Positions 27,142-33,624 of a stretch of 64,000 bases of DNA are shown here, in pieces (position 1 is the stretch's first letter; each line of letters begins with the position of its first letter). The notes under the pieces are model-generated. The model worked only from the letters and a program-made list of their open reading frames with translations, had not been told where the DNA came from and ran no database searches. The position numbers and the translations under genes were made by a program. The DNA comes from Prorocentrum cordatum. Lineage: Eukaryota. The stretch covers positions 868,001 through 932,000 of the forward strand of contig CAUYUJ010000114.1 in NCBI GenBank assembly GCA_963575745.1, read 5' to 3'.

Positions 27142-27163
27142 TCCGTAGCCATTTTGGCTCAAG
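27142..27163 (+). other. Dinoflagellate spliced leader (DinoSL) exon sequence at the 5' end of a LINE
   Basis: TCCGTAGCCATTTTGGCTCAAG is a 22/22 match to the DinoSL consensus DCCGTAGCCATTTTGGCTCAAG. It is followed by GCTAAAC rather than a GT donor, so it looks like a retroposed leader and not an SL RNA gene. Confidence 0.95.
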
Positions 27164-27333
27164 GCTAAACGTTGTGAAGGACTATATACGTCCGAGAATC
27201 AGCGATTAGCTTTGGTCCCTGTCTCCGCAGGTGGCCCGAGCTGCCTTTCTGTGGCCACCAGGGGCCCCCGCGCTTTCCGCGCCCTGTTCTCAGTCTCTGC
27301 CTGTCGGGTGCGGCTACCAGGTAGCCGCGAGGC

Positions 27334-28422
27334 ATGGCTGCGAACGTTCTTCATGATGTAGCTGCGCGACTGGCGGCTGAGATCGACGCCATGGCAACCT
27401 TCCCGTCGCAGGTGTCTCAGGTGCCGTCCCCCGCTCGTGCTGGTGTTCCTGCTGGCGGTGGCGGTGGAGTCAAGCGTCCAAGTGAGCACGGTCATGGTGG
27501 TCGAGAGCCTCGTGACTTTGAGATCTGTGGGGAAGGTGAATCGGACCTCAAAGCGTATATCGACCAGATGCGCGACTCCCTCACGCAGGACTTGTCGCAG
27601 ATGCAGACATCTGTCAACGCCACTTTGGCTTCGACAGCGACCTTGGCCACTAATTCATGCACGGCACTATCGCCCCAAGTGGAGCGACGGTTGGCACCGC
27701 TGGAGGCGACGGTGCGCGACCACACATCCCAGATTGCTGAGGTTATGGCGGAGATCAAGCACTTGCGCACGGAGCTTGGCGTGGCCAAGAGTTCGACACC
27801 TGCCCCACCTCCGACTTTGGCGGGCTCGAACTTCGACCGTTCGCCTGACCCGACGATCATCGTGCTGCGCTGCCAATCTCTCGTATCTAAGGAAGGCATC
27901 AAGGAGATGGCAAAACATTGGCTGGCGCAAGGTGCGATCAATGACGACCAATGGGAGATCCTCGGCGACCCGTCCAGCAAGAGGTACCTCATCAAGTTCA
28001 AGGGGGCGGTCAACCATGCGAGCCGTCTGGTCAACCAATCTTTGGGCTTATTCAAGCCATCCCAGCCTGGCGGGTCGTGGAACAAGTTGTACTGCGTCAG
28101 TATCGAGAGAGTTCGAGTGGAAGTATATGCTGGCCCTGATAAGTCCCCCTGTCAAATCAAGCGTGAGGTCGCCTGCAAGAGAGCGAAGGCAGCCTTTAAC
28201 TTGTTTTGCCCTGATCGGAAGATCTTCATCAACCGCGAGAAGGGTGTTCTCTCGTACCAGTGGAAGGAGCTGCTGGAGATCACGCCGCGTACGGACGACG
28301 TCCCGAACCTGCGTTGGAAGCCGCGCAACCTCGCGGACCTCGGCTTCGACTTGGAGACGCTGCGCTCGAAGGTCACTGAGTCCCTGGCTGGGAATGAGGA
28401 TGACTCTGAGTGGTGCGTTTAG
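27334..28422 (+). CDS. LINE ORF1 protein (362 aa; coiled-coil-like N-terminal half, putative nucleic-acid-binding C-terminal half)
   Basis: Intact, non-repetitive ORF starting at ATG directly upstream of the APE endonuclease. It has a heptad-like stretch (VERRLAPLEATVRDHTSQIAEVMAEIKHLRTEL). The ORF1 call is positional. Confidence 0.75.
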   Translation: MAANVLHDVAARLAAEIDAMATFPSQVSQVPSPARAGVPAGGGGGVKRPSEHGHGGREPRDFEICGEGESDLKAYIDQMRDSLTQDLSQMQTSVNATLASTATLATNSCTALSPQVERRLAPLEATVRDHTSQIAEVMAEIKHLRTELGVAKSSTPAPPPTLAGSNFDRSPDPTIIVLRCQSLVSKEGIKEMAKHWLAQGAINDDQWEILGDPSSKRYLIKFKGAVNHASRLVNQSLGLFKPSQPGGSWNKLYCVSIERVRVEVYAGPDKSPCQIKREVACKRAKAAFNLFCPDRKIFINREKGVLSYQWKELLEITPRTDDVPNLRWKPRNLADLGFDLETLRSKVTESLAGNEDDSEWCV

Positions 28423-31400: not shown

Positions 31401-32117
31401 ATTGCGCGAACGCCGTGGCCGTCTCACTGGAAGAGCCCCCCGTATGCGTTCAACCTCCTGGAGGCCTCCGAGGGATTCCTGCTGAACCCCAACCTGTCGC
31501 AGGCTGGCACCAGTGCTCTCCAGGCCCTTAAAGATGTCCAATCCGTGTTTCACGACAAGCCCCTGAGGTCCCTCAAGCCCCAAAGGATCTTCACTCGTGC
31601 CTTTATTGAACAACTTTTTCCTGACAGACTTCAGCATACTTTTCGGCGTCGATTATTGGGGGCCCGACCCGATTGCAAGAGCATCATCGACTCCGTGGAT
31701 TGGGAAAAAGTCCGAGCAGTGATCGCCTCCCTCCCCCCATCTTGGAGATCCGCCGTCCTCAAGACTCTCGGGGGCTGTTGGTGCACCAGTCATAGGTTCC
31801 AGGGGTCCGCGAAATGTGTCCTGGGTTGCCCTAATGGTGCCGACAGTTCTTGGCACTACTGGACTTGCCCTGTCTTCTTCTGGCTTCTGGAAGCCGGTGT
31901 CGGTCACATTATAGAGGGTGAGCCCATTGCCCGACTCGGCATCAGGCGTCCTGCGAGGGAAGCCTTCAGAGTGCCTGTTTTCGCCTACTATCTGTACAAT
32001 GCATTGCATGTCTTACCTGTCACCTCCGAGGGAACTGTCTCGATGTCGCAGGCCAGGTCCGCGCTGCCGACAGTTCGATTTCAGGTCGAGCGGTCGAGTT
32101 GCAGCACCGCGTCGTAG
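28394..32117 (+). pseudogene. LINE ORF2 (APE endonuclease + reverse transcriptase + C-terminal CCHC), disrupted by several frameshifts and stops
   Basis: Motifs lie in successive frames. APE: RLATWSANAL, VAIQEVHG, GGVATL, VVDDFNV, LINRIF, ISDHAPV. RT: ALGPDNLPYEAW, TRPFGLK/NADNK, QKGFVAGR, YDFGQAFPSV, SGMIQGCPGSG, RACADNVG, YLGMLLGP. C-terminus: KCVLGC..DSSWHYWTCP. Confidence 0.92.
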
Positions 32118-33624
32118 TGCTGGCGGAGGACTCGGCGCGCCCCCCTGCTACGCTCGAGGAGGAGGAGGAGGAGGAGGAGGAGGAGGAGGAGGGGAAGGAG
32201 GAGGGGAAGGAGGAGAGGGAGCAAGGGGGCGGAGGCCTGGAGTTTCGGGCCAGTGGAGCCAGACTTGTTTTTGGTCGCAGCGCGGCAGAGGCAGTCCGCC
32301 CGCGCGCTCAGGCGGTCCAGGCAGCGGAAAGCGCAAACTGACCGGCGGCAGGAGGAGGAAAAAGGAAAGGGCAGGCGGACCAGTGGAGCCAGACACTGTC
32401 CGTCGCGGCGCGGCAGAGACGGTCCGCACGCGAGCCCGAGCGGCACCGGGGCTCGGAGTCGCGGAAATGCCCACGCGCGAGGAGGGAAGAGAAGAGAAGA
32501 GAAGAGAAGAGAAGAGAAGAGAAGAGAAGAGAAGGCCTCGGCGTCGCTCGGACGTGTGCATTTTTTCTTCGGTGAGGGCCATCGAGGAGCATCCTTGATC
32601 ACTTGGCGAAAAAACCACGCACGAAAGCGAAAAAAAACACAGGGAATGGACGTCCGAGCGATGGCGAGGAGGCGGCCGCGGGAGGGGGCCAGGCGCGGGG
32701 GCGCACTCACGCAGCGGGGCTGCGGCGGGTGCGTGGGCGCGGCCTGGCGGAGGGCCCAAACTGGCAGCGGGCTGCGGATCGGCGTCGGTGGGAGGCCAGC
32801 ACTTTGTGGGCCCCGGAAACGGCAGGGCCGTTTTTTCACCGTTTCCAGGAAAATGTCCCTTGAAAATGGAATCAGGAAAAAAAAGCGACCGGAAACAGCA
32901 ACAAAAACGGCTCCAGGATCGGAATTGGAGCCGGAACCGGTCCAAAAACGGCGACAGAACCGGCAAATAAAACGGCAAAACGGAACCGGTAACAAAAACA
33001 GCCCTGTCGCTTCCCGGGCCCACTAAGCCAGCAGCCACAGTGCGGGCGAGGCCCAGCAGGGCGGAGAGTGAAGGCGGCAGCGGCCGAAAGTCGAGTGGCT
33101 ATGCGGGGAGGGGTGGGCAGCGGCTCTGAGCCGGCGGGCCGGGGATCGCCAGCGCTGCAGCGGTTGTGAGGAGCTGAAGGCGGTGGATGATGCGGCGGCC
33201 CCGGGGCGGGAGCGGCCGACGGGCGTCCGTCGCGGGGCACTGGGGAAGCGGGGGCGGGAGAGAAGTAGGAACGCCACTCCACAGCCAGCGCGCGGCATCA
33301 CAGCAGGGAGTTGCGCGTCGTCCAGTGCAAGTGGCGCACCAGCGGGGCCCCTCAGGGTGATGGAGCGGGCCCAGCCGGCCGTCCAAGGTGGAGGCGTGGG
33401 CAAGGTGGGGGGCGAGCCATTGGAGCCAGACGTGCGATGGCTGGATTATTCCACGACGGCCCCCCACCCCAGACGTCGCAACCCGTTCCTTCGGCCGATG
33501 TTTCATCCCGAGTCGCGTTCTGCAGGTCCCAGGGCCCGGCGAGGGACCCTGGAGGCCGTGATTTTTTGTTTTGTTTCACGGCGCAGTCACGTCTTGGGAA
33601 CCAAGGGGGAACATGAAAACGGGG

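Follow-up and report, generated by a model that had tools for sequence, protein, structure and literature searches.

How does a long interspersed nuclear element (LINE) come to begin with a leader that dinoflagellates add to their RNAs after transcription? The question is raised by a retrotransposon at positions 27142-32155 of a 64,000-nucleotide stretch of the Prorocentrum cordatum genome (GenBank assembly GCA_963575745.1, contig CAUYUJ010000114.1, positions 868,001 to 932,000 of the forward strand), which was analysed as a whole and is called the window below. The first letters of this element are those of the complete 22-nt dinoflagellate spliced leader (SL), DinoSL. The unit is probably a full-length, now defective copy of an L1-like retrotransposon that lacks long terminal repeats (non-LTR retrotransposon), made from an SL-trans-spliced mRNA that was copied to its first nucleotide.

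The leader was read on the forward strand at 27142-27163 as TCCGTAGCCATTTTGGCTCAAG. It matches DinoSL exactly and starts directly after ...GGAGGAGG, at the end of a (GGA)n microsatellite, as a first-pass annotation of this DNA had claimed. The 64-kb window was scanned with the 21-nt DinoSL core, allowing up to three mismatches, and a single match was obtained, at 27142-27163 with 0 mismatches. The same core was matched in 0 of 100 dinucleotide-preserving shuffles. The shorter 15-nt relic core (up to two mismatches) also had this SL as its sole match in the window and was matched in 11 of 100 shuffles, so only the full-length SL match was considered significant. The 5' untranslated region (UTR) that follows, estimated at about 170 nt in the same annotation, measured 170 nt (27164-27333), with an RNA fold z of -2.8. 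No ATG was found in the SL plus leader (27142-27333), i.e. from SL nucleotide 1 to the start of the first open reading frame (ORF1).

The sequence after the leader was then compared with that of an SL RNA gene. It begins GCTAAACG and not GTACA, the start of the conserved DinoSL RNA intron as given by the antisense primer dinoSLa/s in Table 1 of PMC3101222. Neither a poly-T terminator or gene end nor an SL-RNA intron was found after the SL. Rfam gave 0 matches at E <=1 across 26400-32800, a search that undescribed ribozymes would escape. No promoter-like element was detected with a sigma-70/terminator scan, which does not cover dinoflagellate promoters.

The boundaries of the unit were determined with Tandem Repeats Finder (TRF). 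It is bounded on either side by the same (GGA)n microsatellite (Table 1), and any target-site duplication would be indistinguishable from the flanking repeat, both flanks being (GGA)n. No LTR-like terminal repeats were found, the only terminal direct repeat being the (GGA)n flank. An A-tract from a polyadenylated mRNA was not found at the 3' end, where the 3' UTR runs into (GGA)n. The window contains 50 (GGA)n/(TCC)n tracts of at least four units. These make up 2.2% of its length, and insertion inside one of them by chance is therefore unlikely. The position of the element suggests priming by GGA/TCC microhomology or by a (GGA)n element tail, and such microsatellites could be a preferred landing site of this LINE family.

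ORF1 was modelled with AlphaFold from 40 sequences (pLDDT 83.2). The model has a long helix at residues 69-153 and a beta-alpha-beta domain at residues 175-291. When it was submitted to Foldseek, nine of the top 10 rows, with E values of 3.2e-3 to 2.5e-2 and prob up to 1.00, were the ORF1p trimer of human LINE-1. In VIA, the model aligned with 2ykp_C with a Z of 7.6 over 181 residues, the rmsd of 20 coming from domain placement, and residues 170-270 aligned with many RNA recognition motifs (RRMs) with Z values of 6-8.8 at ~2.9 A. These fold scores give moderate support to a predicted architecture of coiled coil, RRM and C-terminal domain (CTD). No Pfam family was matched by ORF1 of the window or by any of the 40 aligned relatives (40/40), and only weak coiled-coil-type matches were obtained. 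There was no match of ORF1 to Transposase_22, the Pfam family of L1-type ORF1p. The model thus points to an L1-ORF1p-like architecture with no detectable sequence membership.

Relatives of ORF1 were collected using phmmer, a word-index search at near length being too insensitive (nothing was returned). The search gave 665 cluster representatives at E <=1e-3, of which 199 were at E <=1e-10. Twenty representatives were looked up: 13 were NCBI entries of P. cordatum, four were ENA records and three came from a EukProt transcriptome set. One relative, P0160, is a P. cordatum gene model in which ORF1 is fused with ORF2 pieces of another copy, and is 89% identical to the ORF1 of the window (312/351). 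A search of the ESM Atlas with ORF1 gave only clusters without names.

The second reading frame (ORF2) extends from the ATG at 28394 to the TAG at 32115-32117 and overlaps ORF1 by 29 nt in a different frame. Its N-terminus matched the endonuclease/exonuclease/phosphatase family of Pfam at an E value of 0.057, below the cut-off. The RVT_1 match of the reverse transcriptase (RT) domain (E 1.5e-6) scored 28.5 bits against a cut-off of 29.6, in a decayed copy. The nine longer relatives of ORF2 (35-43% identity) all carry PF00078. Three of them (P0002, P0004 and P0005) also carry PF03372, and the window was aligned by tblastn to their PF03372 N-termini. Among sequences of the Protein Data Bank, P0002 matched L1 ORF2p (E 3.5e-7 to 1.1e-6), and R2 was equally good in the RT (E 6.3e-7).

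The first-pass annotation had placed an ORF2 with apurinic endonuclease (APE) and RT domains after ORF1. Both domains were found there, the former as an APE-like one, but the frame itself is not intact. When P0001-P0005 were aligned by tblastn, the path through ORF2 crossed five frame changes, at ~28772, 29183, 30273, 30930 and 31150. Two premature stops lie in frame, at 29707 and 30786; P0160 has R at the position of the former (29707-29709). In the catalytic motif, CADD has become CADN, and ADD is invariant in the relatives. The copy in the window is therefore defective. Three of the five frameshifts sit in homopolymer runs (C14, A7 and C8), so some of them may be assembly consensus errors. 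With an RT, an AP-like endonuclease, no LTRs and 5'-truncated copies, the element belongs to the non-LTR retrotransposons of the APE type.

Table 1. Coordinates in the window of the SL-bearing LINE copy, its flanks and a Ty1/copia-like element
Feature	Position	Strand	Evidence
Upstream (GGA)n microsatellite, 5' half of target site	26986..27141	+	TRF period 3, 52.7 copies, 83% matches
Complete 22-nt DinoSL	27142..27163	+	Exact match, unique in window, 0/100 shuffles
5' UTR, 170 nt, ATG-free, begins GCTAAACG	27164..27333	+	ATG scan
ORF1, 362 aa, open; predicted coiled coil ~aa 69-153, RRM ~aa 170-270, C-terminal domain	27334..28422	+	ORF scan, AlphaFold, Foldseek, VIA
ORF2 N-terminal part, AP-endonuclease-like; frameshift at C14 run near 28772	28394..29183	+	Pfam Exo_endo_phos E 0.057; tblastn P0002/P0004
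ORF2 linker and RT start, new frame after 29183 shift; in-frame TGA 29707-29709	29185..30276	+	tblastn; P0160
ORF2 RT core; A7-run shift near 30273; CADN 30747-30758; TAG 30786-30788; shift ~30930	30270..31152	+	RVT_1 E 1.5e-6; tblastn; relatives
ORF2 C-terminal region, Cys/His motif from 31779, after C8-run shift near 31150; TAG 32115-32117	31149..32117	+	tblastn; Cys/His spacing as in P0002/P0004
3' UTR, 38 nt, no poly(A) or A-rich tail	32118..32155	+	Sequence inspection
Downstream (GGA)n, from the tail of the element, the target microsatellite (3' half) or both	32156..32215	+	TRF period 3, 20 copies
CCCH zinc-finger protein of Ty1/copia-like element	58453-60444	+	
Integrase core of Ty1/copia-like element	60351-62486	+	rve E 3.4e-7
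RVT_2 of Ty1/copia-like element	62490-63998	+	E 6.7e-7

Other copies were sought in contigs of a DNA sequencing run (X1) in which a quarter of the sampled words occurred, and contigs were aligned at >=80% identity. Positions 27115-27148 were masked in this alignment, so that the SL could be read there only from position 8. A total of 335 X1 contigs matched the element, 43 of them at 99+% identity, 100 at 95-99%, 111 at 90-95% and 81 at <90%. This LINE family is thus multi-copy in a Prorocentrum-like dinoflagellate. The depth of X1 contigs, a rough measure, was 5.5-11.7 over 27284-27621 and 12.6-96.5 in most later bins. A lower depth at the 5' end is as expected with 5'-truncated LINE copies. 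For four of the five frameshifts, the X1 contigs have an indel of the opposite kind (four letters out at 28772, one out at 29183, one out at 30930 and a T in at 31150/31154). At the fifth site (30273), no X1 indel was present among the matches listed. At position 30788, four of four X1 contigs have T where the window has the G of its stop. Taken with the opposite indels, this indicates that other copies are probably open at these sites.

The junction between SL and UTR was recovered a second time. A 269-nt contig from an estuary metagenome (X2, record 9) spans 27149-27403 with 10 differences (96% identity) and extends 14 letters further upstream. It is collinear with the window across the leader, starting at SL position 8 and reaching into ORF1, and is the sole junction-spanning contig among the matches listed. 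Since it carries the same junction, the latter is not unique to the locus in the window.

Close copies also appear to be transcribed, as ORF1 peptides were found in a transcriptome-derived protein set. P0016 (64 aa) is 97% identical from the ORF1 Met onward and P0011 (123 aa) is 93% identical. P0016 has E9, which corresponds to the same T>A at 27359 as in all X1 and X2 contigs. These two peptides and P0022 come from the EukProt transcriptome set labelled Pyramimonas sp. CCMP1952, a green alga; the label most likely reflects cross-contamination with Prorocentrum-like RNA. In the supplementary note of PMC10666404, LINEs of P. cordatum are called likely active, with Kimura distances of 0-10. Gene model s9118_g66601 of that paper has the most dinoSL-bearing transcripts. 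The large number of non-redundant variants described in the note points, in our view, to a repeat family, which might be a retroelement.

Further collections were scanned. No additional copy was found within the window by blastn or tblastn. Of 63 pattern matches to the ORF1 peptide in metagenome contigs, 0 were confirmed, and a 19-nt UTR pattern gave four loci that share only ~25 nt with the element and were rejected as chance matches. In viral contigs, 88 pattern matches to the ORF2 C-terminus and 47 to the RT alignment were obtained, with 0 confirmed in either case. In prokaryote genome contigs, one of 15 pattern matches was confirmed, an RT-like scaffold of 419 nt outside the 5' end. This scaffold, NZ_QVMU01000180.1 of a Vibrio sinensis assembly, encodes a LINE RT fragment 38% identical to relatives of the element, and is probably a eukaryotic contamination of the bacterial assembly. 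In that assembly, near-matches to the SL core were only at chance level, with 2 for the forward core and 3 for the reversed control. When the translated SL-containing frame (27149-27358) was used in a protein search, no candidate for other 5' ends was obtained.

The base after the SL is not that of the intron and no SL-gene remainder follows the 3' end of the element, so the simplest source of the leader is an SL-trans-spliced element RNA. The template would have been the mature mRNA of the element, to which trans-splicing had added the 22-nt DinoSL, with the acceptor lying just upstream of 27164. Target-primed reverse transcription by the RT of the element would then have started in the (GGA)n/(TCC)n microsatellite and reached the first nucleotide of the RNA, so that the leader was incorporated in the genomic copy. 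We infer the trans-splicing event, the priming by GGA/TCC microhomology and the part of the element's own RT (cis-preference) from this anatomy. The first-pass annotation had likewise proposed an element RNA that was SL-trans-spliced and reverse transcribed to its first nucleotide, and this is the best reading of a unit that starts at SL nucleotide 1.

Several points weigh against such an origin. The whole SL was seen in one copy only, the estuary contig showing it from position 8 onward. A processed mRNA template would be expected to leave a poly(A), and none is present. No RNA run is listed with this stretch, and trans-splicing at 27164 was not observed. Five X1 contigs match the element to 27219 and then diverge together, so the leader's first 56 nt may have had a history of their own. 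Putative SL-gene introns of F. kawagutii start with GU or GC (PMC6616646), and a GC behind the SL is thus not enough on its own to rule out that it came from SL RNA; poly(A) RNA reads were the basis on which the F. kawagutii loci had been identified, and 5' ends of retrocopies could be among them. The consensus of the five diverging X1 contigs begins with nine letters identical to the first nine of the SL. These contigs might belong to a subfamily that has diverged, or they might carry a second, eroded SL or a 5' module that is shared or separately derived.

Part of this evidence would suit a single capture, in which the family uses an internal promoter and the present lineage stems from one read-through transcript trans-spliced just upstream, the SL being no feature of the family. 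We regard this as unlikely. It agrees with a whole SL in the window copy only and with a junction present in one more contig, which might descend from the same event or be the orthologous locus in a related strain. It also agrees with four collection scans without other copies and a fifth that gave only the RT-like contig outside the 5' end. Against it stand a leader that is ATG-free and starts exactly at the SL, and the failure to detect a promoter-like or ribozyme element with tools that do not cover dinoflagellate promoters. Moreover, dinoflagellate nuclear mRNAs are described as trans-spliced throughout in passages of PMC5585692 and PMC6050394. The divergence after 27219 would rather suit a chimeric retrocopy, produced by an RT that left the LINE RNA at its 5' end and continued on another SL-bearing RNA, either the 5' end of a host mRNA or the SL RNA, so that the SL and the first ~56 nt would be foreign. 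L1-U6 chimeras are analogous products of template switching. The five X1 contigs diverge consistently, and X1 depth falls from 107 in the first bin to 5.5-11.7 in the two that follow; an SL-gene intron starting with GC would fit as well (PMC6616646). We nevertheless hold this explanation to be improbable: the diverging consensus still resembles the window with a small indel, as fits a diverged subfamily, the letters from 27164 onward are unlike the GTACA start of the intron and lack a poly-T end, and X2 record 9 is collinear over 27149-27403.

Two further explanations were considered. If the element had inserted in or beside an SL RNA gene, the SL would be the exon of that gene. The SL is indeed complete and genomic, and SL genes are multi-copy. 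The first-pass annotation had itself named this objection, with SL intron sequence expected at the 3' flank; that flank consists of (GGA)n, in which neither an intron nor the remainder of an SL was found, and (GGA)n also stands upstream in place of an SL-gene flank. In addition, the ORF2 N-terminus is of the APE type, and neither tandem SL or 5S units nor a second SL were found in the 64 kb. Insertion into an SL gene is largely refuted by the flanks and seems very improbable. An assembly artefact or a cDNA contamination, by which an SL-bearing cDNA was joined to genomic sequence, is the least credible explanation. The frameshifts in the C14, A7 and C8 runs hint at consensus errors, but the same microsatellite lies on both flanks and an independent run has a contig with the same junction.

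The preferred origin, from SL-trans-spliced element mRNA, has partial precedents in dinoflagellates. SL tags are known on ordinary retrocopied genes and have been noted on retrotransposons of flatworms, and the case in the window is not unprecedented. Retrocopies with DinoSL relics, or 'recycled' cDNAs, were described by Slamovits and Keeling (2008), as cited in PMC6050394, and by Song et al. (2017; PMC5585692). According to the latter, in two Symbiodinium genomes that had been sequenced, >20% of genes have SL relics upstream, and the Gene Ontology term 'RNA-dependent DNA replication' is enriched among Symbiodinium SL-relic genes. The RT behind SL-tagged retrogenes is called unknown in passages of PMC6050394 and PMC5585692, where Ty1/copia is favoured without direct evidence; retrotransposons are invoked in general terms in those of PMC12014239, PMC11453091 and PMC8045281. 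The element shares with these retrocopies a post-transcriptionally added 22-nt leader that is genomic and stands at the 5' end of a retro-copied unit. In contrast to them, it is a retrotransposon that was itself copied; its single SL is complete, its insertion boundaries are defined, it lacks poly(A) and its target was a microsatellite.

Other phyla offer closer cases. In flatworms, 597 SL-like loci were discarded, mainly LTR- or LINE-associated, and were read as integrated trans-spliced retrotransposon RNAs (PMC12582326). Six SL exons of S. mansoni were merged to transposable elements (TEs; PMC5832876), and ~30% of TE Iso-Seq reads of Hydra carry an SL (PMC12220107). The flatworm fusions resemble the present case, as far as the relevant passages describe them, in that a trans-spliced retrotransposon RNA was integrated with its leader. 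The phylum and the leader are different, and the flatworm and Hydra cases are mentioned in passing: their leaders are partial, and the anatomy of the elements is not given. In the window, by contrast, the leader is complete and at the exact boundary of the element. In the literature searched, no paper was found in which a dinoflagellate LINE has an SL for its 5' terminus; other papers on DinoSL and retrotransposons may bear on prior art.

Among well-known LINEs, the element is like human LINE-1 in being bicistronic, with an ORF1p predicted to consist of coiled coil, RRM and CTD and an ORF2 with APE, RT and a Cys-rich tail. Unlike LINE-1, it has no poly(A) tail, shows no evidence of an internal promoter in the 5' UTR and has an ORF1 with no Pfam match. 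R2 and L1Tc reportedly obtain their 5' end through processing of a host co-transcript by a ribozyme like that of hepatitis delta virus. The concept would be the same here, the RNA's 5' end coming from RNA processing and not from a transcription start of its own. The processing would however be SL trans-splicing, which would also supply the cap, and no ribozyme was detected by Rfam. SLACS, CZAR and NeSL-1 are site-specific LINEs whose insertions lie within SL RNA genes and interrupt the exon. They too are physically associated with spliced-leader sequence, whereas the element of the window lies in a microsatellite, has a whole SL at its 5' end only and encodes an ORF2 of the APE type.

A wider model may be drawn from the leader, and as a whole we find it rather doubtful. 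In this model, the LINE family would be promoter-less and transcribed within host read-through RNA, and it would receive both 5' end and cap through DinoSL trans-splicing at one conserved acceptor. The terminal AG of the integrated SL, behind the SL's own U-tract, would rebuild the acceptor at each insertion, and every copy landing in a transcribed region would again be a potential source. The same RT would be the source of SL-tagged retrogenes. This last claim is somewhat weakened by the absence of poly(A) and by the fact that the element sits in and ends on (GGA)n, which suggest 3'-end or target-specific priming and not promiscuous copying of polyadenylated mRNAs.

If the favoured origin is correct, a LINE copy that starts with a complete SL would mean that LINE-type target-primed reverse transcription in dinoflagellates copies SL-capped RNA to its cap-proximal end. 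If the SL were moreover the family-wide 5' terminus, trans-splicing would stand in place of the internal promoter of LINEs. The family is concrete, abundant and apparently young, with an L1-like ORF1p, an APE-RT and relatives in P. cordatum, and is a candidate for the retroposition machinery of dinoflagellates. Loci or reads that are called 'SL genes' or 'retrogenes' may, as a warning, be the 5' ends of retrotransposons.

A second retroelement was located in the window. The coding region of a Ty1/copia-like LTR retrotransposon lies on the forward strand at 56053-63998 and runs off the end of the window (Table 1). The SL core scan of the window gave no SL near it. Microsatellites of the (GGA)n/(TCC)n type are very frequent in the window, e.g. 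at 3023-3501, 8154-8682, 33658-34231 and 42579-42888. Just downstream of the LINE, at 32246-32443, two direct repeat pairs, D3 (81% identity) and D6 (95%), are spaced 128-130 nt apart and indicate a local tandem duplication of ~128 nt. They are followed by a perfect (GAAGA)9.8 array at 32486-32534.

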